A DNA stretch of 64,000 bases. Source: Clostridia bacterium. Its GTDB lineage: Bacteria; Bacillota; Peptococcia; Peptococcales; BICA1-8. Below, in pieces: positions 12,436 through 64,000 of this stretch; positions within the stretch are counted from its first letter, which is position 1, and each line of letters opens with the position of its first letter. Where the stretch lies: assembly GCA_012720075.1 (NCBI GenBank), contig JAAXZE010000007.1, positions 465 to 64,464 of the forward strand, in the 5' to 3' direction. Below the pieces are notes generated by a model. That model ran no database searches. It had not been told where the DNA came from and saw only the letters and a list, made by a program, of their open reading frames with translations. The position numbers were made by a program, and so were the translations under genes.

Positions 12436-12441
12436 AGCTGC

Positions 12442-37484: not shown

Positions 37485-37502
37485 AAATTGGAGGTAAAGA
37501 TT

Positions 37503-43991: not shown

Positions 43992-44714
43992 TCATACGAT
44001 TTTTCGTGTTGAATTAATTCGAAAGGCGTACATATCAGAACGAAAAATACTTTTTTCATATTCTATGGGATTATCATTAATATCGGAAATAAATTTTTCT
44101 GTAGTTAAAACACACATTTGTCCGGGCAACTGCAATATTTCTGTTTCTTCGGGAGTTGCCATTGAGCAAGTAATAATTTCCTGGCATTTCCAGAGATTAA
44201 TCCCTAAAGATTTTTCAAGAATATCATAGATAGCGGCATTATTCAAATCAAATTTAGCAAGTTCGTAACCAATCTCCAAGGGATAATATTGTTTTTCTAT
44301 TGCTATAGGAATATCATCGGCATAGCGAATTCTTTCAAAAAAATAGAGCTCATTAAGTCCCAGAGTTGTAGTAGCATCTTCAGGAGTATCGGTTATCCCT
44401 TGATTTATAATTTTTGTGCTGGGTTTCATACCCATTTCCCTGACAATATCATTGAAACTAGTAATATTACCCAACCATTCTTCTATTGGACGAAAAGAAA
44501 TAAATGTGCCCCTTCCGTGAATCTTTTCTAATACTCCTTCGTGGACTAAAGCAAGGACAGCCTGTCTTACCGTAGACCTGCTCACGGAGAATTTCTCCAT
44601 CAATTCTCTTTCACTAGGGATTTTTTCTTCATAGCAGCCTGATAGTATCTCTTCCTTAAGGATTTGTTTCAACTGTTCATGGAGAGGAAGAGGGTTTTTG
44701 CTATCGAGACCCAA
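43992..44714 (-). CDS. GntR-family (HutC subfamily, UTRA domain) transcriptional regulator
   Basis: wHTH SERELMEKFSVSRSTVRQAV plus a C-terminal UTRA-like domain. TTG start after an AAAGGAGGAG SD. Divergent from the ABC/taurine genes. Confidence 0.85.
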   Translation of the reverse strand: MGLDSKNPLPLHEQLKQILKEEILSGCYEEKIPSERELMEKFSVSRSTVRQAVLALVHEGVLEKIHGRGTFISFRPIEEWLGNITSFNDIVREMGMKPSTKIINQGITDTPEDATTTLGLNELYFFERIRYADDIPIAIEKQYYPLEIGYELAKFDLNNAAIYDILEKSLGINLWKCQEIITCSMATPEETEILQLPGQMCVLTTEKFISDINDNPIEYEKSIFRSDMYAFRINSTRKIV

Positions 44715-44750
44715 CTCAAACTCCTCCTTTATTTTTATTGCAAAATTATA

Positions 44751-44766
44751 ACGTCTGTACCAGTTC
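44751..44766 (-). promoter_or_regulatory. Candidate operator copy 1 (reverse complement GAACTGGTACAGACGT)
   Basis: One of three copies of ACTGGTAC(A/G)(G/A)ACGT, all in promoter regions of this gene cluster. Confidence 0.5.
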
Positions 44767-44912
44767 TATTATAAGCATATATACAAATTTTAGCAAATAT
44801 AAAAACAAAAACAATTAAAACAAAACTGAATATAACGAAAAATTATAATATTTATAAATTATTAACAAATATAAATAATAAAAATTTTTTTAAAAAAAGG
44901 AGGAAATTTGCA

Positions 44913-45032
44913 TTGAGCGTCAAATATTTAAATCAAAAGAACTGGTACGAACGTGGTGATGTCATACCCTTTTTTGACAAATTATATTATTTTTGTCGAA
45001 AAAACAAGAAAGGGATTGGCACAATCTTGTAA
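44913..45032 (+). CDS. Possible 39-codon upstream ORF (MSVKYLNQKNWYERGDVIPFFDKLYYFCRKNKKGIGTIL)
   Basis: TTG 44913 lies 9 nt after a strong AAAGGAGGAAA SD, and TAA 45030-45032 lies 6 nt before the ABC ATPase start. No homology recognised, so it may be non-coding leader. Confidence 0.25.
   Translation: MSVKYLNQKNWYERGDVIPFFDKLYYFCRKNKKGIGTIL
44939..44954 (+). promoter_or_regulatory. Candidate operator copy 2 (GAACTGGTACGAACGT)
   Basis: Lies in the leader of the ABC transporter operon, about 85 nt upstream of its start. Confidence 0.5.
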
Positions 45033-45038
45033 AGCGAG

Positions 45039-45803
45039 GTGTTGATTTTGCAGGCATGTATCCAAAAAGAACCCAAAGTTACGGTAAATAATTTAACAAA
45101 AAGATTTGGTAATTTACTGGTATTAGACAATATTAATTTTCACGTCGGTAACGGAGAGTTTTTATGTATTGTTGGCCCTACCGGATGTGGAAAAACAACT
45201 TTCTTAAATTTGCTGTCAAAACTAATACCGCCGACCAAAGGCAATATTTGTATTGATAATGTAGAAGCAGATCCTAAAAAACATAATATTTCATTTGTAT
45301 TCCAGGAACCATCCTGTCTGCCTTTTAGAACAGTAAAAGAAAATATCGCTTATGGGATGCAAGTGAAGAAATTCCCAAAACAACTTATGGAAGAACGTTT
45401 ACAAAAAACTATGGAATTGGTTGGGTTAACCGACTGCGCCGATTTATACCCCAGTCAAATTTCTTCCAGTATGGAACAAAGAGTAGCCATAGCCCGTGCT
45501 TTTGCTGTTAATCCCGATTTGCTTTTAATGGATGAACCTTATGGACAATTGGATGTTAAACTTCGTTATTATTTAGAAGATGAACTTATACGTATTTGGG
45601 AAGAATTTAAAACCACCGTAATTTTTGTAACTCATAATATCGAAGAAGCTGTTTACCTTGCTGAAAGAATTTTAGTTTTAAGTAATAAACCTACTACTAT
45701 AAAAGCAGAAGTTAAAGTTGATTTGCCTCGGCCCCGTAAATTTACAGACCCGAAGTTTATAGAAATTAGAAAACATGTAACGGAATTAATTAAATGGTGG
45801 TAG
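45039..45803 (+). CDS. ABC transporter ATP-binding protein (NitT/TauT family), copy 1
   Basis: Walker A GPTGCGKTT, Walker B LLLMDEP, degenerate signature SSSMEQR. Start ambiguous (GTG 45039, TTG 45042 or TTG 45048). Confidence 0.88.
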   Translation: MLILQACIQKEPKVTVNNLTKRFGNLLVLDNINFHVGNGEFLCIVGPTGCGKTTFLNLLSKLIPPTKGNICIDNVEADPKKHNISFVFQEPSCLPFRTVKENIAYGMQVKKFPKQLMEERLQKTMELVGLTDCADLYPSQISSSMEQRVAIARAFAVNPDLLLMDEPYGQLDVKLRYYLEDELIRIWEEFKTTVIFVTHNIEEAVYLAERILVLSNKPTTIKAEVKVDLPRPRKFTDPKFIEIRKHVTELIKWW

Positions 45804-45890
45804 GTATTAGAAACAAGAAGAAAAAGGGGGGAAGGAAATTTTATTTTTTTAAAGTTTAAGCCTAATTATAAGATAAAGGGGGTTAGTTAA

Positions 45891-47021
45891 ATGAAAAAGA
45901 GTAGTAAGATTTTTGCAATTACAACATTACTATTATTCTTAATTTCTATATTAGCGGGGTGTGGTGGCTCGGCAACTTCACCGGGATCCCAATCAGAAGG
46001 AAAAAGCCAGGGTGCTCAGGAAAAATTGACGAAAATAAGAGTAAGCCATCAGCCGGAATTTGAAACTTTTTTAACCTATAGAGCTATGCAGGAAGGCCTG
46101 GATAAAGCAAATGGAGTGGAATTTGAATTAGTATTCTTTGACTCCGGGATGCCCCAAATTGAAGCCCTTCCAGCTAATCAATGGGATGTAGGCGGAACAG
46201 GTGGGGTGCCTGCACTAATGGCAGCACTGCGGTACAATGCATATGTTATCGGAATCTGTGATGATGAGTCTTTTGCCAATGTTGTCATGGCTAGAGCCGA
46301 TGACCCCATTATGTCAGTCAAAGGGGCAATTCCGCAATATCCCGATATCTACGGCTCTCCTGAACAACTTAAAGGAAAAAATATTCTCTGCACAACAGTA
46401 TCCAGCGGACATTATGGTTTATCCAACTATTTGCAGGCTTTAGGTTTAAGCGATTCTGATGTGAAAATAATGAACTTAGAACAAGCTCAAGCAGTTGCCG
46501 CCTTTGATTCCGGGCAAGGTGACTTAGTAGCTTTGTGGGCACCGTTTTATTACACAGGATTACAAAAAGGTTGGAAGGTTGTGGCTGACGGGGATGCCGT
46601 TAATGCCAAGATACCGTTAGTTTTAATTGCAAATAAAAAGTTTGCCGATGAAAACCCTGAATTAGTGGTTAAATTTTTAGACGTTTATTTCCAGAAAATA
46701 GATGAAATTAAAGAAAAAGGCACTGCTTTGGCTGGAGATTATAAAAAGTTCTTAATGGATTGGGCAGCAATGGATATTAGCTTGGAAGACGCAGTTTTAG
46801 ATATCGAAAAACACCCTGTATATGATTTGAAAGAACAACTGGCTTTGATGGATAATTCCAATGGCCCAAGCGAAGTAGAAAAATGGATGCAAGGAATCGC
46901 AGATTTCTTTACCGCTCAGGGTACATTTACCAAAGAAGAACGAGATAAGGTTTTAAACAGCGGTTTCGTTACCGATAAGTTTTTGAAAATGCTGGCCAAA
47001 GAAAAAGGTTTAATCCCGTAA
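45891..47021 (+). CDS. ABC transporter substrate-binding lipoprotein (NMT1/TauA-like)
   Basis: Lipobox LAGCGG. The periplasmic binding fold resembles aliphatic sulfonate/taurine/nitrate binding proteins. Confidence 0.8.
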   Translation: MKKSSKIFAITTLLLFLISILAGCGGSATSPGSQSEGKSQGAQEKLTKIRVSHQPEFETFLTYRAMQEGLDKANGVEFELVFFDSGMPQIEALPANQWDVGGTGGVPALMAALRYNAYVIGICDDESFANVVMARADDPIMSVKGAIPQYPDIYGSPEQLKGKNILCTTVSSGHYGLSNYLQALGLSDSDVKIMNLEQAQAVAAFDSGQGDLVALWAPFYYTGLQKGWKVVADGDAVNAKIPLVLIANKKFADENPELVVKFLDVYFQKIDEIKEKGTALAGDYKKFLMDWAAMDISLEDAVLDIEKHPVYDLKEQLALMDNSNGPSEVEKWMQGIADFFTAQGTFTKEERDKVLNSGFVTDKFLKMLAKEKGLIP

Positions 47022-47031
47022 TAATTTCCTT

Positions 47032-47066
47032 GGTGGGTGGGGATGGGGTATCTTCCCCTCCCCCAC
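47032..47066 (+). other. GC-rich intercistronic stem-loop after the binding-protein gene
   Basis: GTGGGGATGGGG-TATCTT-CCCCTCCCCCAC. No U-run follows. This is a typical position for a differential mRNA-stability hairpin in ABC operons. Confidence 0.55.
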
Positions 47067-47104
47067 AACTAGGAAGCCTGTGCAGTAAAGAAAGGAGATA
47101 AACT

Positions 47105-47887
47105 ATGGGGGAAAATAAAAAAAATATGTTCTTAAAAGTTTTGTCGGTCGTAAGTATAGTGGCTCTATTTTTAGGCTGGCAGTTAGTTGTTGACTTCGGA
47201 ATTGTGCCCAATACCCTACTGGCTTCCCCTAAGCAAGTAATAGAGATGTTTATCTATAAAATATCTAATGCTAATCCTGATGGAGCTGTGTTATGGGTTC
47301 ATGTCATGACCAGTTTGCAGGAGGCTCTGACCGGTTATTTATTGGCTTTAGTAATAGGTATACCGCTAGGTTTAGCTATGGGATGGTTCGTAGTAGTAGA
47401 GGGTTTGGCACGGCCAATTTTTGAAATGATTAGACCTATTCCTCCTGTTGCCTGGATCCCCTTAGCAATTTTTTGGTTCGGCATTGGCCTGGCGGGGAAA
47501 GTCTTTATAATTTGGGCTTCAGGGCTGGTTCCTTGTGTTATAAACTCTTTTGTGGGTGTAAAAATGACCAATCCTGTATTTATAAAAATGGCCAAAACTT
47601 ATGGGGCAACGGACTGGGAAATTTTCAAAGATATCTGTATTCCTTCAGCCCTTCCTATGGTATTTGGGGGTCTCCAGGTAGCTTTGGCAGCATCTTGGAC
47701 AGCACTGGTAGCAGCAGAACTAATTGCCGCTGATACAGGTTTAGGTTTTTTGATTACGATGGGGAGAAGGTTATTGAAACCGGATATGATTATTCTGGGT
47801 ATGATGATGGTAGGATTAACCGGTGTTATCATTGGAATTATCATTGATAAAATTGAAAAACGCTTGGTCGCGGGGGTGAACAAATGA
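47105..47887 (+). CDS. ABC transporter permease 1 (BPD_transp_1, TauC-like)
   Basis: 6 TM helices with EAA-loop region TYGATDWEIFKDICIPSALP. Confidence 0.88.
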   Translation: MGENKKNMFLKVLSVVSIVALFLGWQLVVDFGIVPNTLLASPKQVIEMFIYKISNANPDGAVLWVHVMTSLQEALTGYLLALVIGIPLGLAMGWFVVVEGLARPIFEMIRPIPPVAWIPLAIFWFGIGLAGKVFIIWASGLVPCVINSFVGVKMTNPVFIKMAKTYGATDWEIFKDICIPSALPMVFGGLQVALAASWTALVAAELIAADTGLGFLITMGRRLLKPDMIILGMMMVGLTGVIIGIIIDKIEKRLVAGVNK

Positions 47888-48735
47888 GTAAAATACTGGA
47901 GGCAAATCCCAATACCGAGGTATTAGAGGGAGCTAGGTCTTCATTTTCAATCAAAAAAATATTATATAACAAATATGTCTTGTATGTAATCTCTATTTGC
48001 TTATTTTTGATAGTTTTGGATTTATTTGCTGTTTTGCAGGTTTTCGGAAATTTCATGCCCCGACCAATTGAGGTTTTAACCACACTAATAAATATGACGG
48101 TTACTCCTTTAGCCGGGAAAACATTGCCAATGCATTTATGGGCAAGCTTAAGAAGAGTATTGATTGCCTTTGCAATAGCAGTATTTATCGGTGTGCCTGT
48201 TGGCGTATTGATGGGCTTCAGTTCTGTTGCTAATGCTATCATCAGTCCTATTTTTCATTTATTCAAGCCTATGCCGCCCATTGCCTGGATTTCTTTGGCG
48301 ATTTTATGGCTGGGGATTGGTGAAGCTTCTAAGGTTTTTATAATTGTCATAGGTGCTATAGTACCTTGTATTTTAAACTCTTATAACGGTATAAGGCTTG
48401 TAGATGAATCCTTGAAAGACGCCTTGCGTATGTTGGGTGGAAATCGCCGCCAGGAAATTATTGAGGTCATTTTTCCTGCATCTTTTCCTGCCATTTTTGC
48501 CGGATTGCAAATTTCCTTAAGTATGGCGTGGACCACAGTGCTGGCTGCCGAATTAGTAGGGGCAAGGGAAGGCATGGGGTTTATAATTGTCATGGGGATG
48601 AACCTTTCTAAGCCGTCAATGATTATTGCAGGCATGATTGTTATTGCTTTAACGGCATTTATGATCTCCATGGCTGTAAATTATCTGGAAAGGTGGGTCT
48701 GCCCTTGGAAAACAGAATTGGAAACGACGGAATAA
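47884..48735 (+). CDS. ABC transporter permease 2
   Basis: Paralogous to permease 1 (MLGGNRRQEIIEVIFPASFP EAA loop). ATGA overlap with the upstream gene. Confidence 0.88.
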   Translation: MSKILEANPNTEVLEGARSSFSIKKILYNKYVLYVISICLFLIVLDLFAVLQVFGNFMPRPIEVLTTLINMTVTPLAGKTLPMHLWASLRRVLIAFAIAVFIGVPVGVLMGFSSVANAIISPIFHLFKPMPPIAWISLAILWLGIGEASKVFIIVIGAIVPCILNSYNGIRLVDESLKDALRMLGGNRRQEIIEVIFPASFPAIFAGLQISLSMAWTTVLAAELVGAREGMGFIIVMGMNLSKPSMIIAGMIVIALTAFMISMAVNYLERWVCPWKTELETTE

Positions 48736-49487
48736 AAAACGTAATTGAATGTAAAGGGATAAGTAAATACTTTGGAGAGGGCGCAAATAAAAAGGAAGTA
48801 CTTTCTACCATGGACCTTAGTGTAAAGGAGAATGAATTTGTAGTTATCCTAGGACCGGGGCAATCGGGCAAATCTACTTTATTTAGAATGATTGCCGGTT
48901 TGGAAAAACCCAGTACAGGGCACATCTATGTTAATGGTAAAGAAGTTACCGGACCAAATCCGGTCATTGGTTATGTCTTTCAGAGATATACTCTGTTTCC
49001 ATGGAAAACGGTTATGGAAAATGTTGAGATGGGACCAAAATTGAAGGGAGTAGGGAAAAAGGAAAGAAGGGAAAAGGCCCAATATTTTATTAATTTAGTA
49101 GGTCTGAATGGTTTCGAAGATGCTTATCCTCATCAACTGAGCGGCGGTATGAAACAAAGGGTAGGTATTGCCAGAGCTTATGCCAATGATCCTGAGATAA
49201 TGCTTTTAGATGAACCTTTTGGTCAATTGGATGCACAAACCAGGATTTTAATGGAACAGGAAATACTGAGAATCTGGGAAAAAGAAAAAAGAACGGTGTG
49301 CTTTGTTACCAATAATATTGATGAGGCAATATTTCTGGGGGACCGGATAGTAATGCTGGAAGGTAAATTGCCCAGTAAAATGAAGAAAATTTATAACGTT
49401 GATCTCCCAAGACCTAGGGATTTTACAGATTTAGCATTCCTTGAGCTACGGGAAGAAATAACAGGCGAAACAGAGTTAGCTCTATAA
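48693..49487 (+). CDS. ABC transporter ATP-binding protein, copy 2
   Basis: Walker A GPGQSGKST, signature LSGGMKQR, Walker B MLLDEP. Start uncertain; it overlaps the end of permease 2. Confidence 0.88.
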   Translation: MGLPLENRIGNDGIKNVIECKGISKYFGEGANKKEVLSTMDLSVKENEFVVILGPGQSGKSTLFRMIAGLEKPSTGHIYVNGKEVTGPNPVIGYVFQRYTLFPWKTVMENVEMGPKLKGVGKKERREKAQYFINLVGLNGFEDAYPHQLSGGMKQRVGIARAYANDPEIMLLDEPFGQLDAQTRILMEQEILRIWEKEKRTVCFVTNNIDEAIFLGDRIVMLEGKLPSKMKKIYNVDLPRPRDFTDLAFLELREEITGETELAL

Positions 49488-49790
49488 ATTTTTTTGGATA
49501 ATGAAGGTACGGATGTCTGTACCTAAATAATAAATATAACTATAAAAATATATGTGGGAGGTAATTTTTATGTAGGAAAAATAATTAACTACTGCAGGTC
49601 CGAAAACATTTTATATTCCTACTTAATAATCACCTGTTTTTAGGTAATACGGTTGATTGTCAAGGTTTGGCACTGGAGGGCTTTAAAACAGTAATACTAA
49701 CGGAATAATGGGATTTACTTGCAGAATTAAATAAAACTGCAAATTTGTATCTGCAAAGGCTTATAATGAATAAGCCTAAAAAAATAGAAG

Positions 49791-49805
49791 CACTGGTACG
49801 AACGT
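49791..49805 (+). promoter_or_regulatory. Candidate operator copy 3 (CACTGGTACGAACGT)
   Basis: Lies about 50 nt upstream of the aminotransferase start and about 25 nt downstream of a TATAAT at 49762-49767. Confidence 0.5.
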
Positions 49806-49854
49806 CATAATAAGAGATTGGAATTTAAAAATTAAAAATTAAGGGGGTATAAAA

Positions 49855-51264
49855 ATGGCACTTAATCTGAGGAATGACAATGAGGATTTATTATGCAGCT
49901 ATGGACCTGCTGAAATGATTAAAATGGACAAAGAAAATTTATGGCATCATTTAACACAGCATAAAGTTTTTGAAACAGCAGACCCGCTTATTGTTGTGGA
50001 AGGAGAAGGCTTACGGATCAAAGATATTAAAGGCCGGGAATATATTGACGCTGTTTCCGGGGGAGTCTGGTGTGTCAATGTCGGCTATGGCAGAGAAAGC
50101 ATTGCTGAGGAGGTTTATAACCAATTAAGGGTAATGCCTTATTATGCAGGCAGTGCCGGTAATATTCCTGCTATAAAATTTGCCAAAAAGCTGACATCCT
50201 TATTGCCGCGCCTCCAAAAAGTGTATTATTCCAATAGTGGCTCTGAAGCCAATGAAAAAGCCTTTAAGATGGTCAGACAGTCTTTTAGACTTAAATATCC
50301 AGATAAAGAAAAAATTAAAATTCTTTATCGCAATAGGGATTATCATGGCACGACCATAGGGGCACTAAGCGCGACAGGGCAAGAGGAAAGAAAAGAAGAG
50401 TATGGACCTTTTGTCCCGGGATTTGTTGAATTTCCTCATGCTTGTTGCTATAGGTGTCATTTTGGTAAGACCTACCCCGCTTGTGATATAGATTGTGCCC
50501 GAGTAGTGGAAGATATCATCCTTAAGGAAGGACCCGACACCGTTGGAGCAATAATAGTAGAACCCATTACAGCCGGAGGCGGTATAATTCCTCCTGTTAA
50601 AGAATACTACCCAATTCTACAGGAAATTTGTAAAAAGTACGAAGTTCTAATGATTATGGATGAAGTTGTATGCGGTTTTGGCAGGACAGGTAAGATGTTT
50701 GGTCATGAACATTATGATGTTGATCCTGATATAGTTACTATGGCCAAAGGTACGGCAAGCTCCTATATGCCTCTTTCGGTTACTATGGCCAAAGCGGAAC
50801 TCTTTGATGTTTTCAAAAGCAATCCGGAAGATAAACTGGCTTATTTCAGGGATATCAGTACATTTGGCGGTTGTGCGGGTGCTTTTGCTGCCGGGTTAGA
50901 AAACATAAGGATAATTGAAGAAGAAAAGCTTTTTGAAAACAGTGCCAATATGGGGCGTTATATGCTGGAAGGTTTAAAAGAATTTACATCTTTCCCAATT
51001 GTCGGAGATGTAAGGGGGATAGGCTTATTTGCGGGAATAGAACTTGTTGAGGATAAAGAAACAAAGGTTCCTGTTAGTGAAGAATTTATTGGAAAGATAA
51101 TTGCGGATATTTCGGCTCAAGGAGTTCTGGTCGGCAGAACCAATAGAAGCTTCAAAAATCAGAATAACATTATTAATTTAGCCCCGGCTCTTATTGCTAC
51201 AAAGGATGATATTGATCAAATACTTCAGGCAATTAAGAATTCCTTAGAAAAGTTTAGCAAATAA
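49855..51264 (+). CDS. tpa: Class-III (omega) aminotransferase, probable taurine:pyruvate aminotransferase
   Basis: PLP fold-type I class III motifs (DEVVCGFGRTGKMFG; Schiff-base Lys in VTMAKG). The specific function is inferred from its position immediately upstream of an Xsc-like gene and in the same cluster as ald. Confidence 0.7.
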   Translation: MALNLRNDNEDLLCSYGPAEMIKMDKENLWHHLTQHKVFETADPLIVVEGEGLRIKDIKGREYIDAVSGGVWCVNVGYGRESIAEEVYNQLRVMPYYAGSAGNIPAIKFAKKLTSLLPRLQKVYYSNSGSEANEKAFKMVRQSFRLKYPDKEKIKILYRNRDYHGTTIGALSATGQEERKEEYGPFVPGFVEFPHACCYRCHFGKTYPACDIDCARVVEDIILKEGPDTVGAIIVEPITAGGGIIPPVKEYYPILQEICKKYEVLMIMDEVVCGFGRTGKMFGHEHYDVDPDIVTMAKGTASSYMPLSVTMAKAELFDVFKSNPEDKLAYFRDISTFGGCAGAFAAGLENIRIIEEEKLFENSANMGRYMLEGLKEFTSFPIVGDVRGIGLFAGIELVEDKETKVPVSEEFIGKIIADISAQGVLVGRTNRSFKNQNNIINLAPALIATKDDIDQILQAIKNSLEKFSK

Positions 51265-51294
51265 AACAGATATAAAATTAAGGAGGTTTTAAAA

Positions 51295-53040
51295 ATGGCA
51301 AAAGTAAAAATGACACCCAGTGAGGCTATGACCGAAGTATTATTACAGGAAGGAGTGGATCATGTAACAGGGATAGTAGGTTCTGCATTTATGGATATGC
51401 TGGATTTATGGCCCACAGCAGGTATAAAATTCATTCCTGTTCGTCATGAACAAACTGCAGCCCATATGGAAGATGCTTATGGACGGATTACCGGCAAAGC
51501 AGGGGTCTGTATTGGGCAAAACGGTCCAGGTATGACCAACATGGTAACCAGCGTGGCAGCAGCCAATATGGCTCATACTCCTATGGTTGTTATCGGTCCT
51601 TCAGCGGGAACTCCAACTGTTGGCTGGGACGGTTTCCAGGAAGCTGACCAGGTATCTATCTTTAGACCCATTACCAAAGCTGCTTTAAGGGTACCCCATC
51701 CCAGCCGGGCCGGTGATGTATTAAGGACTGCATTCCGTATTGCCTATGCCGAAAGAGGACCGGTCTATGTGGACGTACCCCGGGATTATTTCTACGGGGA
51801 AGTAAATGAAGAAATATTGCCGCCTTATAGATACCGGGCTATAAATAACCGTGTAGCGGGAGATCCGGAGGAATTAAAAAGAGCTGCCGAACTATTGGCT
51901 CAAGCCAAAAATCCCGTTATTATTTCCGGCAGAGGTGTAGTTGATGCCGATGCTTATGATGAAGTCAAAGAAATTGCCGAGCTGTTAACGGCACCGGTTG
52001 CCATGTCATATTTGCACAATGATGCTTTCCCGGCGAATCATGAGTTATGGATTGGCCCCATAGGTTATATGGGTTCCAGGCAAGCCATGTTAACCTTAAA
52101 AGATGCCGATGTCATTTTGGCTATTGGTTCGAGGCTATCAGTATTTGGTACAACACCTCAGTATGACATAAATTATTTCCCCGAAAATGCCAAAATAATT
52201 CAAATAGATGTCAATCCCAAACAAATTGGCCGCAAACACCCGGTAGAAGTTGCGATTATTGGCGATGCCAAGTTGGCTACAGCAGAGCTGATTAAATTAT
52301 TAAAAGCAAAAGGCGGTTTCCAACCCAATGAAGCCCGTTTAGCTGAAATCAAAGAGCGAAGGGCTGCCTGGGAAAAAGAAATCAGGGAATTGGCAATGGT
52401 CGAAGGCAATCCCATTAATCCTCGGAGGGTATTACTGGAATTAAGTGAAATGATGCCGGAAAATGCCATTGTCTGCACCGATATCGGGAATGTATCTTCG
52501 ACAGCCAATAGTTATTTGAAATTCACCAAACCTCGTCGCCATATCGCGGCGTTAACCTTTGGCAATACCGGTTTTGCTTACCCCGCCGGATTAGGTGCCC
52601 AATTGGCAGAACCGGAAAGCCCGGTAGTATGTATTATCGGTGATGGTGCTTGGGGTATGAGTGTCCATGAGGTTAGCACAGCCGTAGAACATAACCTGCC
52701 GGTAATAGCTTGTGTATTCAGGAATATGGCTTGGTGCGCTGAAAAGAAAAACCAGGTAGATTTTTATAACAGTCGTTTTGTCGGTGTAGATATTCCTAAT
52801 CCCATAAGCTTTGTTCCCGTTGCCGAAGCCTTTGGTGCAAAAGGTATCAGGGTTGAAAAGGCCAGTGACATTAAAGCTGCTTTCCAAGAAGCTTTAGAAG
52901 CCAGAAAACCAACGGTCTTAGAGTTCTGTGTGGACGGCACCCAGTTGGCACCGCCATTCCGAAAAGATGCTTTGGCTTTACCTACCCGTTATCTGTCCAA
53001 GTATGAACATTTAGACTACAGAAGATGGTTTGAAGATTAA
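51295..53040 (+). CDS. xsc: ThDP-dependent sulfoacetaldehyde acetyltransferase-like enzyme
   Basis: 581 aa. The N-terminus [36 protein letters not shown] resembles Xsc as I recall it rather than acetolactate synthase. ThDP motif GDGAWGM..N. Confidence 0.7.
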
Positions 53041-53074
53041 AAATATACTGCCTTTACAGGACAAAGGATTGTTC

Positions 53075-53110
53075 AATCAAGAGGATGTCATTATTGACAT
53101 CCTCTTGATT
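53075..53110 (+). other. Perfect 16-bp stem-loop between xsc and the MFS gene
   Basis: AATCAAGAGGATGTCA-TTAT-TGACATCCTCTTGATT followed by an A-run (no U-run on either strand). Confidence 0.7.
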
Positions 53111-53128
53111 AAAAAAACGAGGAATAAA

Positions 53129-54361
53129 ATGGAAAATAAACAATTAGTAGTAATAAAAGACCAAACTGTAGTTTTGATTTCGATAATAACAGCAGTTTGT
53201 TTATTGGGTAATTCTATGCTTTATGTTACTTTACCCATTTATTTTCAGGAAGTGGGTTTAAAATCATTATGGGAAGTAGGACTGCTGTTATCAGTAAATC
53301 GTTTTGTAAGACTGCCTCTTAATGCTATAATTGGCTGGTTATATAGTAAAACTACCATACGCTTTGGTTTTATTTTGGCGGTATCTTTTGCGGCAATTGC
53401 TACTTTGGGTTATGGGATATTTACTGGTTTTTGGATGTGGTTATTGCTCAGAATTTTTTGGGGAGCGGCATGGTCATTATTAAAATTAGGAGGATTTCTT
53501 ACGGTTTTAGTGGAGGCAGAGAAAGACCAGAGAGGTCACCTGATGGGAAAATATAACGGGTTACATCGTTTAGGCGACTTTTTTGGTATGTTAATGGGGG
53601 GTATTCTAGCAGGTTTATTAGGCTTTAGACAAACTTTATTTATTTTTGGATTAATTATAGCTTTGACAATACCTATCGCAATTATTTTTGTTCCTAATTA
53701 TTCTGCATCCCACCATGCTAAAACTGAATCTCAAGAACTCAAAAATATACACTTTTCTTTTTCCATTACACGGGTAATATTAGGCGGTCTGGTTATTTCA
53801 ATGCTTTTTGAGGGCGTAATGGCCTCCACTCTTAGTTTATTATTAAATGAAAGGTATCAGGAAGGAATCTGGATTTTTAATTTTACTATAACCGTTGCAG
53901 CTATGTCCGGCTTTCTTCAAGGAATTAGATGGTTATGGGAACCCTTTCTGGCACCTTTTATAGGGCGCCGCTCGGATAAAATGGCAAGCAGACAGATGCT
54001 CTTTATTCCGTTTTTAATTCTTGGAGCATTAGGTTTCTTTATTGTTCCTTTAAAGCTTCCTTTATTTCTATTGATAGTAGTGATACTTATCCTTATGCTT
54101 ACCGCAACAGCTTTGGTCACATTAAGCGATTCTTTGGCTTCCGATATAGCCAGACAATCTTCGTCGGTTAGGATCATGACAATATACACTATTGCTTTAG
54201 ACTTTGGTGCTGCCTTAGGCCCGGTCATCGGATATCAATTGGTAATTTTGTCATCCGGCTTATTATATACTTATCTGTTAGGTTCCATTCTATTATTTAT
54301 AGTGTTGCTGTTATGGGCAGTACCATTAATAAATAAAAAAAGTCTTCCGTTTAATGTGTAA
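53129..54361 (+). CDS. MFS transporter (12 TM)
   Basis: Hydrophobic profile. ATG 53129 follows GAGGA; the listed ORF 53030 start reads through the hairpin and overlaps xsc. Confidence 0.8.
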   Translation: MENKQLVVIKDQTVVLISIITAVCLLGNSMLYVTLPIYFQEVGLKSLWEVGLLLSVNRFVRLPLNAIIGWLYSKTTIRFGFILAVSFAAIATLGYGIFTGFWMWLLLRIFWGAAWSLLKLGGFLTVLVEAEKDQRGHLMGKYNGLHRLGDFFGMLMGGILAGLLGFRQTLFIFGLIIALTIPIAIIFVPNYSASHHAKTESQELKNIHFSFSITRVILGGLVISMLFEGVMASTLSLLLNERYQEGIWIFNFTITVAAMSGFLQGIRWLWEPFLAPFIGRRSDKMASRQMLFIPFLILGALGFFIVPLKLPLFLLIVVILILMLTATALVTLSDSLASDIARQSSSVRIMTIYTIALDFGAALGPVIGYQLVILSSGLLYTYLLGSILLFIVLLLWAVPLINKKSLPFNV

Positions 54362-54477
54362 AAATATTCTAGGGTTTAGCGAAAATCAGCCATTGGGTAC
54401 ATTACTGATGCAATAAATCCTATAACCTTGCAAAATGTAGAAAAGTGATAACAAGAAATTTATAAGGAGGTTTTTTC

Positions 54478-55593
54478 ATGATTATAGGTGTACCTAAAGA
54501 AATAAAAAATAATGAAAATCGCGTAGCAATTACACCTGCCGGGGTGAAAAGTTTTGTCAAAGCCGGTCACAAGGTAGTTATAGAAAAATCGGCGGGATTA
54601 GGAAGTGGTATTAGTGACGATGCTTATCGGGAGGCAGGAGCGGAAATATTAGCTGATGCCCAAACGGTTTATGCCCAAGCTGATATGATAATTAAGGTCA
54701 AAGAACCCCTGCCTGCTGAATATCCTTTATTTAAAGAAGGGCAGATTTTATTTACCTATCTTCATTTAGCTGCCGAGCCGGAATTAACCAAGTTATTAAT
54801 GGAAAAAAAGATTGTATCTATAGCCTATGAAACGGTACAACTAAATAACGGCAGTCTACCTCTGTTGACACCGATGAGCGAAGTAGCCGGAAGAATGTCA
54901 GTCCAGATTGGTGCCCAATTTTTAGAAAAACATTATGGAGGAAAAGGAGTACTTATCGGTGGAGTTCCCGGAGTTTTACCGGCAAAGGTAGTAATTCTCG
55001 GCGGAGGAACAGTGGGAATTAACGCCGCAAAGATGGCGTGTGGTTTAGGGGCCGATGTAACCATAATTGAAAAAAGCAGTGAGAGAATGAGATATTTGGA
55101 TGATGTATTTGCCAATAAAATCAAAACTTTAATGTCTAATCCTTTTAATATAGCCGAACAGGTAAAGGATGCCGATTTAGTGATCGGTGCCGTTTTAATT
55201 CCGGGAGCAAAAGCGCCTTGTTTAGTCACCGAAGAAATGGTTAAAACTATGCAACCTGGTTCTGTCATTGTCGATGTAGCCATTGACCAAGGCGGTAGTG
55301 TTGAAACCATAGACAGAGTTACCACCCATAGTGACCCGGTCTTTGAAAAATATGGAGTGCTTCACTATGCAGTAGCAAATATTCCTGGTGCGGTTGCTCG
55401 TACCTCTACCTTTGCTTTGACAAATGTAACCCTTCCTTATGCTTTGGATATTGCTAACAAAGGTTGGGAAAAGGCCGTAAGAGAAGACCAAGCATTAGCT
55501 AAAGGTGTGAATGTCGTAAATGGGTATATTACCTGCCAAGGTGTGGCAGAAGCCCATGGTTTGGAATATATTCCTTTGGAAGAAGTTTTATAG
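54478..55593 (+). CDS. ald: Alanine dehydrogenase
   Basis: [23 protein letters not shown] and NAD fold [14 protein letters not shown]. 371 aa. Confidence 0.95.
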
Positions 55594-55813: not shown

Positions 55814-56692
55814 ATGTCTTTATCAAAAGAAAATATTATTATCGGTTTTATTGGAACCGGGGTAATGGGCCGAGGGATGGTCAATAATTTACTGAAAGCA
55901 GGTTATAAGGTAAATGTATTTAATCGGACAAAGGCCAAGGAGGAAGAGTTAATTAATAACGGTGCCCAGTGGATGGATACCGTAGCCGACATAGCCAAAA
56001 ACTCCAATGTTATTATTACAATCGTAGGTTATCCTAAAGATGTGGAAGAAGTATACTTGGGCGAGAACGGAATATTAAATAATGCAGCCAAAGGTACATA
56101 TGTAATCGATATGACCACTTCATCACCCATGTTGGCGAAAAGAATCTACCAAGAAGCTTTGGAAAAAGGCATTTTTGCTCTGGATGCCCCTGTTTCTGGC
56201 GGGGATATCGGTGCCAGGGAAGGTCGGCTGTCTATAATGGTTGGCGGGGACAGCCAGGCTTTTGAAGAAGTTAAACCCATCTTTGAAGCAATGGGCAAGA
56301 ATATAGTTTTACAGGGGGGAGCCGGTGCCGGTCAACATACCAAGATGTGCAACCAGATTGCCATTGCTTCCAACATGATAGGGGTCTGTGAAGCCATAGC
56401 TTATGCGAAAAAAGCCGGACTTGACCCTACTACTGTTCTTAAAAGCATTGAGACAGGAGCCGCCGGCAGTTGGTCATTAAGTAATTTAGCCCCCAGGATG
56501 ATTGCCGGAAACTTTGCGCCAGGTTTTTATGTCAAGCATTTTATTAAAGATATGAATATAGCGTTAGAATCGGCCAAGGAAATGGGCTTATGGACACCGG
56601 GGTTAGAACTGGCCAAATCCCTTTATGAAAAATTAGCCGCTTTAGGTGAGGAGGACAGCGGAACACAGGCATTGTATAAGTTATTTGTTTAA
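55814..56692 (+). CDS. NAD(P)-dependent beta-hydroxyacid dehydrogenase (3-hydroxyisobutyrate dehydrogenase family)
   Basis: GFIGTGVMGRGM Rossmann motif, DAPVSGG and a catalytic Lys region. Substrate unknown. Confidence 0.85.
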   Translation: MSLSKENIIIGFIGTGVMGRGMVNNLLKAGYKVNVFNRTKAKEEELINNGAQWMDTVADIAKNSNVIITIVGYPKDVEEVYLGENGILNNAAKGTYVIDMTTSSPMLAKRIYQEALEKGIFALDAPVSGGDIGAREGRLSIMVGGDSQAFEEVKPIFEAMGKNIVLQGGAGAGQHTKMCNQIAIASNMIGVCEAIAYAKKAGLDPTTVLKSIETGAAGSWSLSNLAPRMIAGNFAPGFYVKHFIKDMNIALESAKEMGLWTPGLELAKSLYEKLAALGEEDSGTQALYKLFV

Positions 56693-58348: not shown

Positions 58349-60481
58349 ATGGACAAGCGCCAAATGATTTTAGATTTTATGGCTACCAAAGCCTATCGGC
58401 CTTTAACTTTAGAGGAACTGATTGCCCATTTTGAGATAAAAGAAGTTGAAGAAATAAAAGAGTTTACCCAATTATTAAGGGATATGGAAGAAAAGGGTCA
58501 GGTTATTCTAACCAGGAAAAATCGTTATGGTTTGCCCCAACAGATGAATTTAGTTGTAGGCCGGGTTCAAAGGCATGCCAAAGGCTTTGCCTTTTTAATT
58601 CCCGATGACCCAACCGTCCGGGATGTTTATATTAAAAGCGATGACCTAAATGGGGCCATGCATAATGACCGGGTGGTTGTTAGGCTGCACAAACCTTTAG
58701 ACATTAAGAAAAAGCAAGAAGGGGAAGTAATCCGAATTCTAGTCAGGGCCAATCAAACCGTTGTGGGCACCTTTGAAGGAAGCCGCAATTTCGGCTTTGT
58801 TATCCCTGATGATTCCAGGATTGGTCAGGACTTTTTTATAAGCAAAGAAGATTTTAACGGAGCCAAAACCGGGGAAAAAGTTGTAATCCAAGTGACCCGC
58901 TGGCCGGAGAAAAGGCGCAGTCCTGAAGGCAAGGTTATTGAGGTGCTTGGCAAAAAGGGCGATCCGGGAGTAGATGTGGTTTCTATTGTGCGAAAATATC
59001 AGCTGCCTGAAGATTTCCCCAGGGAAGTTTTGGCTGCTGCTGAGAAAATCCCGTTAACCATTTCGCCGGAAGAAATTAAAGGAAGAAGGGATTTGCGGTC
59101 CCTGCCCATGGTCACTATTGACGGCGAAGACGCCAAGGATTTGGATGATGCCGTTTCTCTGGAAATTTTGGATAATGGCCTGTACAGGTTAGGGGTACAC
59201 ATTGCCGATGTTGGTCATTATGTTCCCGAAGGTTCCATCTTGGACCAGGAAGCATTTAAACGGGCAACCAGTGTTTATTTGGTAGACAGGGTAATACCCA
59301 TGCTTCCCCAGCGGCTTTCTAACGGAATATGCAGTTTGAATGCCGGTGAGGACAGGCTTGCCCTGACCTGTTTTATGGATATTAATAGTAAAGGCATAGT
59401 GGAGAATCATGAAATCTGTGAATCAATTATTCATGTCAACGAGCGGATGACTTATAAAAATGTTACTAAAATATTAGTGGAAGAAGATAAGGAGCTTATT
59501 GAAAGGTATCGAGACTATGTAGAAATGTTTAAATATATGAGTGACTTATGTTTTATCCTGAAAAACAAAAGACTCCAAAGAGGTGCCATAGATTTTGATT
59601 TTCCTGAAAGTAAAGTCATCCTGGATGAACAGGGTAAACCTGTTGAAATAGCTTGGCGGGAGAGAACTTTGGCCGACCAGATAATTGAGGAATTTATGAT
59701 TTGTGCCAACGAAACTGTGGCCGAGCATTTCTATTGGCTGGACATTCCCTTTTTATACCGGGTCCATGAGGAACCTGATTTGGAAGACGTTGAAGAACTA
59801 AATAATTTTTTAAGTATTTTTGGCTTATATATCAAAGGAATCGGTGACCAGGTTCACCCTAAAGCCTATCAAACGGTAGTGGAAAAGGTCTTGGGCCGGC
59901 CGGAGGAAAGGGCCATTACTACAGTAATGCTCAGGTCCATGAAGCATGCCCGGTATGCCCCTGAAGCTTTGGGCCACTTTGGGCTGGCTTCTAAATATTA
60001 CTCCCATTTCACTTCACCTATAAGACGTTATCCCGACCTGGTCATTCATAGGATAATAAAAGAGGTGCTAAAAAAGGGTGGAAAATTAAATAGTGAAAGA
60101 TTAGAAAAACTAAGATTAAAAATGGCGGAGTATGCCGAACAATCCTCTCTGCAGGAAAGAATTGCCGAAGATGCTGAGCGGGAAAGCGTTGATTTGAAAA
60201 AGGTTGAATACATGAAACAGTTTGAAGGGCAGGTCTTTGACGGCGTAATCAGCAGTGTTACCTCCTTTGGGCTCTTTGTGGAATTAGAAAATTCGGCGGA
60301 AGGCTTGGTCCATGTCTCAACCATGACCGATGATTTTTATCACTTTGTCGAAAAAAACTTGACCCTTTTAGGAGAGCATACCAAAAAAGCATATCAATTA
60401 GGACAGAGGGTAAAGGTATTAATAACCAGGGTAAATATTGAAGACCGACAGATTGACATGGAATTGGTTGAGGAAGACTAA
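58349..60481 (+). CDS. rnr: Ribonuclease R
   Basis: 710 aa with cold-shock-like domains, an RNB domain (DGEDAKDLDDAV, YRVHE) and a C-terminal S1 domain. Confidence 0.95.
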   Translation: MDKRQMILDFMATKAYRPLTLEELIAHFEIKEVEEIKEFTQLLRDMEEKGQVILTRKNRYGLPQQMNLVVGRVQRHAKGFAFLIPDDPTVRDVYIKSDDLNGAMHNDRVVVRLHKPLDIKKKQEGEVIRILVRANQTVVGTFEGSRNFGFVIPDDSRIGQDFFISKEDFNGAKTGEKVVIQVTRWPEKRRSPEGKVIEVLGKKGDPGVDVVSIVRKYQLPEDFPREVLAAAEKIPLTISPEEIKGRRDLRSLPMVTIDGEDAKDLDDAVSLEILDNGLYRLGVHIADVGHYVPEGSILDQEAFKRATSVYLVDRVIPMLPQRLSNGICSLNAGEDRLALTCFMDINSKGIVENHEICESIIHVNERMTYKNVTKILVEEDKELIERYRDYVEMFKYMSDLCFILKNKRLQRGAIDFDFPESKVILDEQGKPVEIAWRERTLADQIIEEFMICANETVAEHFYWLDIPFLYRVHEEPDLEDVEELNNFLSIFGLYIKGIGDQVHPKAYQTVVEKVLGRPEERAITTVMLRSMKHARYAPEALGHFGLASKYYSHFTSPIRRYPDLVIHRIIKEVLKKGGKLNSERLEKLRLKMAEYAEQSSLQERIAEDAERESVDLKKVEYMKQFEGQVFDGVISSVTSFGLFVELENSAEGLVHVSTMTDDFYHFVEKNLTLLGEHTKKAYQLGQRVKVLITRVNIEDRQIDMELVEED

Positions 60482-60669: not shown

Positions 60670-61131
60670 ATGGAGAATGTCAAAGTTGTCACAGAAAACC
60701 GAAAAGCTAGGCATGATTATCATATCCTTGAAACCTTTGAAGCCGGGATGGAACTAAAAGGTACGGAGGTTAAATCTCTCCGCTCCGGTAAAGCCAACTT
60801 AAAGGATAGTTATGCCCAGGTGGAAAATGGAGAAATTTTTATCTTTAACATGCACATTAGCCCCTATGAACAGGGAAACCGCTTTAATGTTGACCCATTA
60901 AGGCCCCGCAAGCTCTTAATGCATAAGAAGGAGATTTTGCGCCTCTGGGGTAAAACCAGGGAAAAAGGGCTTACTTTGATTCCGTTAAAGGTGTATTTTG
61001 TCCGGGGCAAAGCCAAAGTTGAGTAGGCACTGGCCCAGGGTAAGAAACTTTATGACAAACGGGAGGCTGCCGCAGAAAAATCAGCCAAACGGGACATCGA
61101 AAAAGCCATGAAAGAAAAAATGCGTTTTTAA
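60670..61131 (+). CDS. smpB: SsrA-binding protein SmpB, interrupted by an in-frame TAG (61024-61026)
   Basis: [29 protein letters not shown] core. After [11 protein letters not shown] the same frame continues [37 protein letters not shown], which is the conserved SmpB C-terminal tail. An alternative start is GTG 60658. Confidence 0.85.
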
Positions 61132-61195: not shown

Positions 61196-61550
61196 GGGGG
61201 TGTAATGGTTTCGACGGGGGAATTCGGTGGCTTGAGAAGCGAGTCGAGGTCGCACTGGCTCGTTAAACGTTGCACAAAAAATAAACGCTAAAAACAATAA
61301 CTTAGCTTTAGCTGCTTAATTGCAGTCTAACCTCCTACTTGCCTTTGCCTGTGGGGCGAGCAAGGGGGTCACATTAGCAGGCTACTCTTAAGTAACCGCC
61401 TTGTAGCTTAAGGGGAAACTTACAGGGCTGGCCGATGGAAATCCTGTTTGTGGGAGTTCCTGAGGCGAGATGCCAAAACACAAACTACGCTCGTAGATGC
61501 TCAGGTGGTCGATCTTCCGGACAGGGGTTCGACTCCCCTCACCTCCACCA
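61196..61550 (+). ncRNA. ssrA: tmRNA (SsrA), predicted tag reading frame GCT AAA AAC AAT AAC TTA GCT TTA GCT GCT TAA (AKNNNLALAA)
   Basis: The 5' GGGGGTG pairs with the 3' CACCTCCACCA acceptor stem, including G3:U. T-arm GGGGTTCGACTCCCC. The tag ORF ends ..LALAA-TAA. Located directly after smpB. Confidence 0.93.
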
Positions 61551-63022
61551 GCAAAGGTCACAATCGTGTCTATGTCGATTGTGTTTTCATAGACGATTAC
61601 TTTTTTAACATAAGCTTGGATGATGCGTTTTTGCTCTTCCGGGCTTTTATTTTTTATATCAGCGTCTTTTTGAAGATACTTCCGTATCATATCTTCTGTA
61701 GGTGCATGCATTTGAGCCTGTAGTTTTGCTTCCTCAAGTTTTATTGTGAGATTGGCCTTTTTAGTTTCCAACTCGTCCATTTTCTCTTTCATGGACTGAT
61801 GGAACATCCCAGCAGCTATAGCGTTCACAATATTGTTGATCTCCGTTTGCACTCCGGCCAATTGATCGGTAAACAACTTTATATCCCGATTAATCTCCTT
61901 GCTTTGAGAGGCGGCATATTCAGATATTTTCACCACCAGTCTTTCTATAGCTTCCGGGGAAAAAACATTTTCTTCAAGGTGTTTAATAACAATATTTTCC
62001 ACATAGTTTTTGTTTATCGCTTTCATATCGCAAGCCTTAGTTCTTTTCCTAGTGGAGCACTCATAACTCACATACAGGTCCTTATTTCTGCCAGCGAACT
62101 TCCTTGTCCCTGTCATGACACCACCGCATTTACCGCAGAAAATTAATCCAGATAAAAGATATATTTCTTTTGCTGAATTTGCACCCTTCTTATTCTTTTC
62201 CATACGTTTTTGCACCGCCTCCCATATTTCATCTGATATTATTCTGGGTATACCGCCCTCAATTCTGATGATTTCATCCTCGTTTTTGCTCTTGTGGTGA
62301 TTGCGCTTACCGTTAATCTTGCTGGCTGAACGATTAAATATATAAACCCCCCGGTATTTTTCGTTCTTAAGTATGTCGTGAATGCTATTTTTACCGAATG
62401 GTCTGCCGGTTTGGGTTTTATATCCTTGGCTATTTAGGACATGAATTATTTCACTGTAACCTTTTCCAGCAGCATACATTTCAAATATAGTCCGTACAAT
62501 ACGAGCTTCATGCTCATTGATTATGTACGTTTTGTCATTGGCAACATCGTATCCCAGCGGTGGCCTTCCACCAGTATGTTTGCATTGTAGGGCTGTTTCC
62601 TTCATGCCTTTCATGACTTCCCGCGCAAGGTTGCGGCTGTAATATTCGGCCATACCTTCCAAGACAGATTCCAGAATGATGCTTTCTGGACTGTCATCAA
62701 GGTGTTCAAGAACCGATATGAGACGCACGCTATTCTTTTTGAGCTGCCTTTTGTAGAAGGCTGAATCATATCTATCCCGAGAAAACCGATCTAGTTTATG
62801 CACAATCACAACGTCAAACAGGCCCAATGCGCTGTCTCGTATCATTTGAAGAAAACCAGGCCTGTCATCCGTTGTGGCTGATTTGGCTTCATCGGTATAT
62901 ATTTTTACTATTTGCATATTATTTCGATTACAATACTCTTTTATAGCCCGAAGCTGGGCTTCAATACTTTCCTCTCGCTGATTGTCACTAGAATATCTTG
63001 CGTATGCTGCAGCTTTAAACAT
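61388..63022 (-). CDS. Large serine recombinase; its last ~55 codons are antisense to the 3' part of ssrA
   Basis: Catalytic region AAAYARYSSDNQ, resolvase domain, recombinase domain, zinc ribbon CGKCGG..YECSTRKRTKAC and a coiled-coil. ATG 63022 follows GGGAGGGG. The ORF has no stop until 61388, 163 nt into the tmRNA gene. Confidence 0.85.
   Translation of the reverse strand: MFKAAAYARYSSDNQREESIEAQLRAIKEYCNRNNMQIVKIYTDEAKSATTDDRPGFLQMIRDSALGLFDVVIVHKLDRFSRDRYDSAFYKRQLKKNSVRLISVLEHLDDSPESIILESVLEGMAEYYSRNLAREVMKGMKETALQCKHTGGRPPLGYDVANDKTYIINEHEARIVRTIFEMYAAGKGYSEIIHVLNSQGYKTQTGRPFGKNSIHDILKNEKYRGVYIFNRSASKINGKRNHHKSKNEDEIIRIEGGIPRIISDEIWEAVQKRMEKNKKGANSAKEIYLLSGLIFCGKCGGVMTGTRKFAGRNKDLYVSYECSTRKRTKACDMKAINKNYVENIVIKHLEENVFSPEAIERLVVKISEYAASQSKEINRDIKLFTDQLAGVQTEINNIVNAIAAGMFHQSMKEKMDELETKKANLTIKLEEAKLQAQMHAPTEDMIRKYLQKDADIKNKSPEEQKRIIQAYVKKVIVYENTIDIDTIVTFAGGGEGSRTPVRKIDHLSIYERSLCFGISPQELPQTGFPSASPVSFPLSYKAVT
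61559..61588 (+). terminator. Probable ssrA terminator hairpin (also a candidate recombination-site dyad)
   Basis: CACAATCG-TGTCTATGT-CGATTGTG followed by TTTTC, 8 nt after the CCA end. It lies inside the antisense recombinase ORF. Confidence 0.6.
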
Positions 63023-63065
63023 GATTTTCCCCTCCCAAAACCAGAACTGATGTTCGTATACATGG

Positions 63066-63533
63066 TTAAAAAAAATTATCAATGTTTTCTATAATTCCTA
63101 ATGGATCAAAACAAATCCAGTATTCTCCCACACGGCAGTAGATGCCGTATTTTTCTTTGTAATATTTCACAGCATCACATAGAAACCTTTCTGTTACACC
63201 TAGGTACTCTGCTAGTTCGTGTTTAGTTCTGATGCCGGCTTTGTATGCTTCCACTAGCTTGTCCAAAGGAACAAGTTTCTGGTAGGCCAAGGTTCTTGCT
63301 CTACGCTCCTGCTTACGATTCTCTATTTTTGATTGGTCTAGGATATTGCCAGCAGTAGTGTAATAATGGCCGAGTTCTTCGGCGAGAACACAGCATTTCT
63401 CTGCAGTGGTCTCTAAGTTTTTGTTTAGACCAATCACCTTATCATAATACAAACCCTTTATCTTTCCTTTCAATGGAAGGTAAACAACTTCTATGCATTC
63501 CTTTTCTGCTTCAATGAGTAAGGTTTCATGCAT
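63066..63533 (-). CDS. ImmA/IrrE-like (DUF955) protein with variant EELGH motif and a C-terminal HTH-like segment
   Basis: CCVLAEELGHYYT sits where the family normally has HExxH. TKHELAEYLGVTERFL resembles an HTH. Family assignment is from memory of similar clostridial mobile-element proteins. Confidence 0.5.
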   Translation of the reverse strand: MHETLLIEAEKECIEVVYLPLKGKIKGLYYDKVIGLNKNLETTAEKCCVLAEELGHYYTTAGNILDQSKIENRKQERRARTLAYQKLVPLDKLVEAYKAGIRTKHELAEYLGVTERFLCDAVKYYKEKYGIYCRVGEYWICFDPLGIIENIDNFF

Positions 63534-63652
63534 TTTGCGTCCTCACCAATCTGAAAATTTTATTAGGCACAAAAAAATGAACTATCCACAAGGTAAAGTT
63601 TTGACTATTATAGAATTAGAAGTATATGAATTTAACAAAGGCGGTGTGATTA

Positions 63653-64000
63653 ATGTTTAGATTAGCTAGAATATTGAATAGAAAAACTGTACTTATATTT
63701 GTGGTAATTATTGTGGCATTAATCACAACAATCGTTATAAAGTATTGGGATTGGGCACTGGCTAATTTAGGAATAATAAGTTATATTTTCACTGGTTTTA
63801 TAATACTAGCTACTTTATGCGTTAAGTATCCTAACGTTTATATGTATGGGGTATATCTTAAAGCAATTTTATTCGGAGTAGAAACGCTCTGGAATTTATC
63901 TGCCCGTTATATTGGAACCATTTCCCAATTAGAATTCAAACAATTGTGTAATGAATTAGAAAAAATGAGCGAAAGGGTTTCTGTCCATATTCAAAATGAC
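63653..64000 (+). CDS. Partial ORF (116 codons, open to the window edge) encoding a small membrane protein
   Basis: My translation is MFRLARILNRKTVLIFVVIIVALITTIVIKYWDWALANLGIISYIFTGFIILATLC.. with no stop before nt 64000. Weak SD. Absent from the ORF track, presumably because it is unterminated. Confidence 0.4.
   Translation, partial: MFRLARILNRKTVLIFVVIIVALITTIVIKYWDWALANLGIISYIFTGFIILATLCVKYPNVYMYGVYLKAILFGVETLWNLSARYIGTISQLEFKQLCNELEKMSERVSVHIQND

Follow-up and report, generated by a model that had tools for sequence, protein, structure and literature searches.

The TAG codon that interrupts smpB in the 64,000-nucleotide stretch of DNA analyzed here (the window) is ordinary in kind: it is a private point lesion in a MAG and not programmed biology. 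With somewhat better than even confidence, we attribute it to a consensus or assembly error, or to a low-frequency defective variant that was taken up by the assembler. As judged from the other sampled alleles, the species has an smpB gene that is predicted to be normal.

An in-frame TAG separates the body of SmpB from its tail

The presence of an in-frame TAG at 61024–61026, within smpB (60670–61131, forward strand), was confirmed in the sequence. The gene and its upstream neighbor are laid out as follows.

58349–60481, forward strand: rnr (RNase R), the usual upstream neighbor of smpB, carrying a window-derived H396Y change at 59534
60670–61023, forward strand: smpB codons 1–118, the beta-barrel body, identical to residues 1–118 of P0001
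61024–61026, forward strand: in-frame TAG, with A at 61025 where 4/4 same-species contigs have T (TTG, Leu119)
61027–61131, forward strand: SmpB C-terminal tail, 34 codons (ALAQGKK..DKR..) plus TAA; DNA identical to the wild-type alleles

After the TAG, the same frame runs on for 34 sense codons to the TAA at 61129–61131. The ATG at 60670 is the start used by the intact orthologue P0001, and an alternative in-frame GTG lies at 60658. The truncated product would have 118 residues from the ATG or 122 from the GTG, and the full-length protein would have 153. When Leu is placed at the TAG, the translation is 100% identical over 153 residues to P0001, a metagenome protein with a precomputed PF01668 assignment, and it matches the SmpB family (PF01668) in both body and tail; the matches that rank after P0001 are 85–91% identical and are annotated as SsrA-binding protein. 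The usual partners of the gene are also in place, with rnr upstream (58349–60481) and ssrA downstream (61196–61550), and the order rnr–smpB–ssrA is the usual arrangement (PMC4131195).

The sequence-only reading had placed the TAG just before the tail, at the Leu/Ile position of the KVE(L/I)ALAxGKK block. Reading of the frame bears out both statements, the position being one of Leu, Ile or Val. The stop precedes the GKK motif by four codons (ALAQGKK in the window, KGKK in E. coli). The GKK and DKR motifs of the tail are still encoded, but the TAG cuts them off from the SmpB body in the window contig, which supports the further claim that the truncated product would be without the essential tail. 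If the allele is real, the SmpB that is made would lack the KGKK/DKR tail, and SmpB that has lost its C-terminal tail no longer supports tmRNA activity in vivo, although it still binds tmRNA and the ribosome (PMC4151336).

Same-species alleles carry a leucine codon at this position

Could the TAG be a property of the species? Four contigs, each from a different sample, encode P0001 (Logan SRR31940690, SRR18360461 and SRR18360460; JGI 3300012949), and their DNA is 99.5–99.8% identical to that of the window. All four have TTG where the window has TAG, and in all four the tail is uninterrupted and in frame with the body. The smpB lesion is a single T>A at 61025 that is private to the window contig; elsewhere in the gene there is one further variable site, which is synonymous and occurs in one contig. 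The proposal that TTG became TAG by one substitution is, therefore, exact. On the other hand, the suggestion that the downstream frame is under continuing constraint is not supported: because smpB is one base away from the same-species wild type, there has been no time for decay, and the intact tail reflects recency rather than constraint.

The comparison with orthologues that had been suggested as a check was also run, and no stop was found at this codon in the same-species alleles or in the parsed orthologues. In 58 parsed related genome loci, the residue at the TAG codon is Val in 26, Leu in 24, Ile in 7 and Met in 1, with a stop at the equivalent codon in none of the 58. The best 120 protein matches to SmpB are all 150–179 residues long, and the 118-residue and 122-residue products are absent among ~15 billion catalogued proteins. 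The recovery of a sense codon on resequencing, which had been named as the outcome that would overturn the interruption, has been reached in spirit only, in that TTG stands in four independent assemblies from four other samples. A 25-nt stretch spanning the TAG, with N at 61025, had 0 exact matches in a metagenome contig collection; since a JGI contig has this same sequence, the collection appears to be without this species.

A search of genome contigs with SmpB returned 80 relatives, of which the best are Peptococcaceae UBA3933 and BICA1-8 (85–86%), and the SmpB of Desulfonispora thiosulfatigenes (79%) is among the nearest named relatives. As a separate observation, positions 43992–55593 of the window hold a taurine/sulfoacetaldehyde-type cluster consisting of a GntR regulator, an ABC transporter, a class-III aminotransferase, sulfoacetaldehyde acetyltransferase (NLT94064), an MFS transporter and alanine dehydrogenase. 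Such a cluster fits relatedness to the taurine fermenter Desulfonispora.

The window carries further lesions in prfB and in a hydrogenase gene

It had been pointed out that prfB, like smpB, carries an internal stop. This is true, and the gene in fact holds two, one of which is programmed.

1726–2829, forward strand: prfB (RF2), with the PCRF and RF-1 domains in the +1 frame after the frameshift site
14915–16320, reverse strand: NiFe hydrogenase large subunit, frameshifted where a G run has lost 1 nt, with G5 (15817–15821) versus G6 in contigs L091 and L096

The programmed +1 site of prfB reads ...TTGAGGGATTCA CTT TGA C at 1780–1797 (CTT TGA C at 1791–1797) and is preceded by a Shine-Dalgarno-like GAGGGA, as expected of a programmed frameshift. 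This canonical CTT TGA C explains one of the two internal stops. The other, a TAA at 2305–2307 between the PCRF and RF-1 domains, lies outside that mechanism and is private to the window contig; the codon is AAA (Lys) in 3/3 other contigs. A second private change alters SPF, the tripeptide that recognizes the stop codon, to SSF at 2335 (CCC>TCC, with CCC for Pro in the three other contigs). RF2 is the only factor that reads UGA. Since TGA ends 9 of the 53 long open reading frames (ORFs) in the window, a TAA that cuts RF2 short before its SPF and GGQ motifs should not be compatible with life.

The hydrogenase large subunit is similarly broken, being split into ORFs of 177 and 295 residues where L091 and L096 have an intact gene of 468 residues. 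It also carries a private G>V change at 15492.

Private changes form a contig-wide class that looks unselected

We compared 16 same-species contigs, which together cover ~30 kb of the window. Changes were assigned to a lineage by at least two other contigs or by outgroup proteins. Contigs encoding the exact RNase R or hydrogenase small subunit of the window were not recorded, and these regions were reached through cluster members. The window itself is a MAG contig, in which the hydrolase, thioesterase and RNase R are NLT94068.1–NLT94070.1 and cggR has the locus tag GXW85_00660. The changes were distributed as follows.

Synonymous: 9 window-derived, 23 in the other contigs
Missense: 9 window-derived, 4 in the other contigs
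Nonsense: 2 window-derived (prfB 2305, smpB 61025), 1 in the other contigs
Frameshift: 1 window-derived, 0 in the other contigs
Non-coding: 2 window-derived (61181; 61270), 4 in the other contigs (33861 and 58255, intergenic; 61318 and 61533, ssrA)

The ratio of synonymous to non-synonymous changes was 9:11 in the window and 23:5 in the other contigs (Fisher p = 0.012). The nine missense changes of the window comprise prfB P>S, cytochrome b Q>H, hydrogenase G>V, uvrB R>S and M>I, rpoN E>K, rnr H>Y, and two in PDZ and hypothetical genes. Two private clusters (11649–13145 and 56074–56107), with seven synonymous and two conservative missense changes, look like ordinary divergence. When both clusters are set aside, the scattered singletons give 2:9 versus 23:5 (p = 0.0004). 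The window-derived changes are, furthermore, biased toward transversions, with a transition to transversion ratio of 6:16 as compared with 21:11 for the other contigs (p = 0.012). The context check revealed no shared sequence motif around the private changes. Window proteins that contain a window-derived amino-acid change were found in NCBI only, and never in Logan, JGI or ENA assemblies.

These results indicate that the private changes are a contig-wide class with an unselected look, of which the smpB TAG is one member. The double hit on prfB and smpB consequently needs no special explanation. Two nonsense changes among 20 random coding substitutions are unremarkable (p = 0.19–0.41). The sequence-only reading had left the prfB–smpB pair as coincidence, error or biology; coincidence or error is favored and biology is not, as the damage extends to unrelated genes. 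Targeted hits on termination genes were likewise rejected as the main reading: the hydrogenase, cytochrome b, uvrB, rnr, rpoN and two further genes are also damaged, and 2 nonsense changes in 20 are within chance.

The adjoining ssrA gene and an inserted element

The region downstream of smpB contains the tmRNA gene, two private changes and an inserted element.

61181, forward strand: C>A private to the window, lying 15 nt before the tmRNA begins; C in 4/4 other contigs
61196–61550, forward strand: ssrA (tmRNA), complete, tag AKNNNLALAA; called by ARAGORN, and by Rfam RF00023 with 224.8 bits over model positions 1–374 of 374
61270, forward strand: window-private G>T in ssrA, turning the pair C61255–G61270 into a C.U mismatch in the first hairpin after the tRNA-like domain
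61551–64000, reverse strand: mobile element inserted directly after the 3' CCA of ssrA, with the two genes listed next
63082–61388, reverse strand: large serine recombinase ORF, its first 510 codons (63082–61551) in the element and its last 54 (61388–61550) antisense to ssrA
63533–63066, reverse strand: IrrE/M78 peptidase gene, in the inserted element

With the change at 61270 in place, ssrA still scores 224.8 bits over the full RF00023 model, and smpB has no change beyond the TAG. As a side observation, the recombinase ORF of the element has no stop codon of its own, and its final 54 residues are read antisense through ssrA, so that integration changes the C-terminus of the recombinase. In the uninterrupted allele on contig L002 (JGI 3300012949), ssrA is followed by tRNA-Cys and pyruvate formate-lyase genes. 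The L002 allele has a lesion of a different kind. At position 841 of the contig, equivalent to 61318 in the window, the stop of the tmRNA tag is changed from TAA to TCA, which would make the tag 24 residues longer and take away its C-terminal LAA; in L002, no tmRNA is called by ARAGORN any more.

Could RF2 and trans-translation be undergoing a linked loss?

The same JGI assembly contains another prfB lesion. In contig L089 (JGI 3300012949), a different nonsense change, GAA>TAA at the window equivalent of 2050, splits the gene calls into 70 and 257 residues. Could the lesions in prfB and in the rescue genes then mean that, in natural populations, RF2 and trans-translation tagging are being lost together under selection, perhaps as an early step toward UGA reassignment? 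The logic would be that failed UGA termination floods tmRNA tagging and thereby favors second-site mutations that remove SmpB or the degradation tag. Independent prfB nonsense codons occur in 2 of 4 assemblies (2305 in the window and 2050 in L089), and both assemblies also have a rescue lesion, namely the smpB TAG and the ssrA change at 61270 in the window and the TAA>TCA tag stop in the JGI contig L002. Across all contigs, prfB has 4 non-synonymous variants to 1 synonymous, versus 12:31 for the other compared genes. In addition, loss of prfB accompanies the reassignment of UGA to Trp in other bacteria (PMC13462651, PMC10540940).

We nevertheless regard this scenario as very improbable. The comparison is post hoc, and the contigs were retrieved with these very genes. 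The damaging changes of the window are scattered across many unrelated genes, TGA acts as a stop in nine window genes and interrupts a gene only at the programmed prfB site, and RF2 and SmpB are 85–92% conserved in sister species. The JGI contigs also carry two other missense changes. There is similarly only a faint likelihood that natural populations of this uncultured species repeatedly inactivate RF2, in which case the loss of RF2 or the reassignment of UGA would have been caught early, while still polymorphic, together with its interplay with ribosome rescue.

Stop-codon usage argues against decoding of the TAG

Could the TAG instead be decoded? UAG is read as pyrrolysine in some Firmicutes, and pyrrolysine users occur among related Peptococcaceae-type Firmicutes. 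In such a case, pyrrolysine machinery or an amber or ochre suppressor tRNA would allow full-length SmpB to be made despite the stop. The position tolerates Leu, Ile, Val or Met, the frame 3' of the TAG is intact, and an ochre suppressor would also rescue the prfB TAA. As a likeness to known pyrrolysine decoding, the window has an in-frame TAG in a Peptococcaceae-like Firmicute.

Several observations count against decoding. The 53 long ORFs of the window end in TAA (32), TAG (12) and TGA (9). It had been claimed that TAG is a frequent genuine stop here, and this stands: 10 of the 12 are clearly genuine, including those of uvrB, cggR, gpmI, a CofD/yvcK-like gene and ald, and the TAG-ended uvrB and cggR have the same length as their homologues from other species. 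Hence, TAG is not avoided as an ordinary terminator, as it would be under pyrrolysine recoding, and global reassignment of TAG, already thought unlikely in the sequence-only reading, was rejected on stop-codon usage. Nor is the TAG conserved at the same codon in orthologues; as no stop occurs there in the four same-species alleles or in any parsed orthologue, nothing has evolved around it, and the DNA 3' of the TAG is the same as in alleles without any stop to recode. ARAGORN found no tRNA genes within the 64-kb window, including none with a CUA or UUA anticodon, and none of the 40 window ORFs scanned with Pfam belongs to a Pyl-related family. The ten other window genes that end in TAG do so at lengths matching their homologues, and an efficient ochre suppressor would come at a cost, since more genes end in TAA than in any other stop. 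Known pyrrolysine decoding also differs in its protein context, SmpB being no methylamine methyltransferase. Decoding of the TAG is, in our view, extremely improbable. TGA-interrupted genes were likewise absent from the window apart from the programmed prfB site, with TGA serving as the stop in nine genes.

Two same-frame gene pairs in the window are worth recording in their own right. The PHP-domain genes at 27122–27868 and 27923–28657 are adjacent and share one reading frame, in which a TAG and 18 stop-free codons lie between them; they look like putative tandem paralogues, each with an N-terminal PHP match, and not like one interrupted gene. At 36303–38258, pgk (TGA-ended) and tpi share a frame with one codon between the pgk stop and the tpi ATG, and they are most likely ordinary adjacent genes, as both have full-length Pfam matches.

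Comparison with known smpB lesions

Strain-specific defective smpB genes (Hudson, Lau and Williams 2014, PMC4131195) resemble the window allele in that a single lesion is absent from close relatives and that ssrA and rnr are adjacent. An inactivating lesion that close relatives do not have is one mark of a strain-specific pseudogene, and the smpB TAG is such a lesion. The authors of PMC4131195 themselves noted that single lesions of this kind "could instead be sequencing errors". Their free-living cases differ in being frameshifts in finished isolate genomes, whereas here a nonsense codon lies in a MAG contig with other private breaks.

Engineered SmpB tail truncations and KGKK/DKR mutants (Sundermeier 2005; Jacob 2005; reviewed in PMC4151336) are similar in that the entire tail is lost. 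They are, however, laboratory constructs with measured phenotypes, whereas the window allele is known from its sequence alone and may not exist in cells. Reduced endosymbionts offer a third parallel, with a missing tail or premature smpB stops in Carsonella and in Hodgkinia TETUND1, the latter with two TAA stops (PMC4131195). In the endosymbionts, such losses come with long-term genome reduction and are shared by a lineage or fixed; in the present case, on the other hand, the sister alleles encode an uninterrupted SmpB, and outside the TAG the gene has kept its sequence.

Error, transient variant or null allele?

How, then, might the TAG have arisen? It is not a programmed feature of the organism but a single contig-specific T>A, and all other genomes sampled from the species have TTG (Leu119) there. 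It belongs with the scattered private changes that show no trace of filtering by selection (2 nonsense, 1 frameshift, ~9 missense and 1 ssrA pair break). If it is an error or an unfixed variant, the organism would make an ordinary SmpB of 153 residues. The prfB TAA provides the link: as about a sixth of the genes end in TGA, this codon should be lethal, so that the private class, the smpB TAG included, would consist mostly of errors or unfixed variants. We infer a technical cause rather than a living lineage from the assembled contigs, not from reads.

Several observations run against error. A 66-kb contig implies reasonable coverage, and a short-read consensus with ~5 errors per 10 kb would be unusual. 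Of the 20 private coding changes, nine are synonymous, a larger share than errors striking at random would produce by themselves; this excess suggests that some of the private changes (the clusters at 56074–56107 and 11649–13145) are genuine divergence and that the strain is really distinct. Pure error would, moreover, require a second coincidence, in that JGI 3300012949 has its own prfB nonsense change and a lost tmRNA tag stop.

The principal alternative is a real strain-specific null allele, smpB(Leu119>amber). The strain would make a tailless SmpB of 118 residues and would have lost trans-translation, with an ArfB- or BrfA-like factor as backup and with relaxed selection or a mutator behind the other changes. 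smpB and ssrA are dispensable in several Firmicutes, which counts in its favor. The strain does look truly distinct, with its private synonymous clusters and an ssrA island that L002 is without, and further private changes lie in or near ssrA at 61181 and 61270, the second of which breaks a helix pair. Inactivated strain-specific smpB genes have been catalogued in complete genomes (PMC4131195), and the loss of the tail would be expected to kill tmRNA activity yet spare tmRNA and ribosome binding (PMC4151336). On the other hand, the same contig carries the nonsense codon in prfB, a gene that the organism should not be able to do without as long as 9 of 53 ORFs end in TGA. Unselected changes run at ~14 per 30 kb, which, when extrapolated, means hundreds of broken genes per genome, and the variant proteins have not been seen again in any other assembly. 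A null allele is, consequently, a possibility that we take seriously but consider doubtful, and error or a low-frequency variant is the reading we prefer.

Implications

Two consequences follow for the reading of such contigs and for the biology of the organism. This MAG contig has ~1 unselected private change per 2 kb, and at such a rate internal stops should not be equated with recoding unless they have read-level support. Taken at face value, the TAG would mean that a free-living Firmicute has lost trans-translation or that it decodes UAG in a housekeeping gene; neither is needed to explain the sequence.
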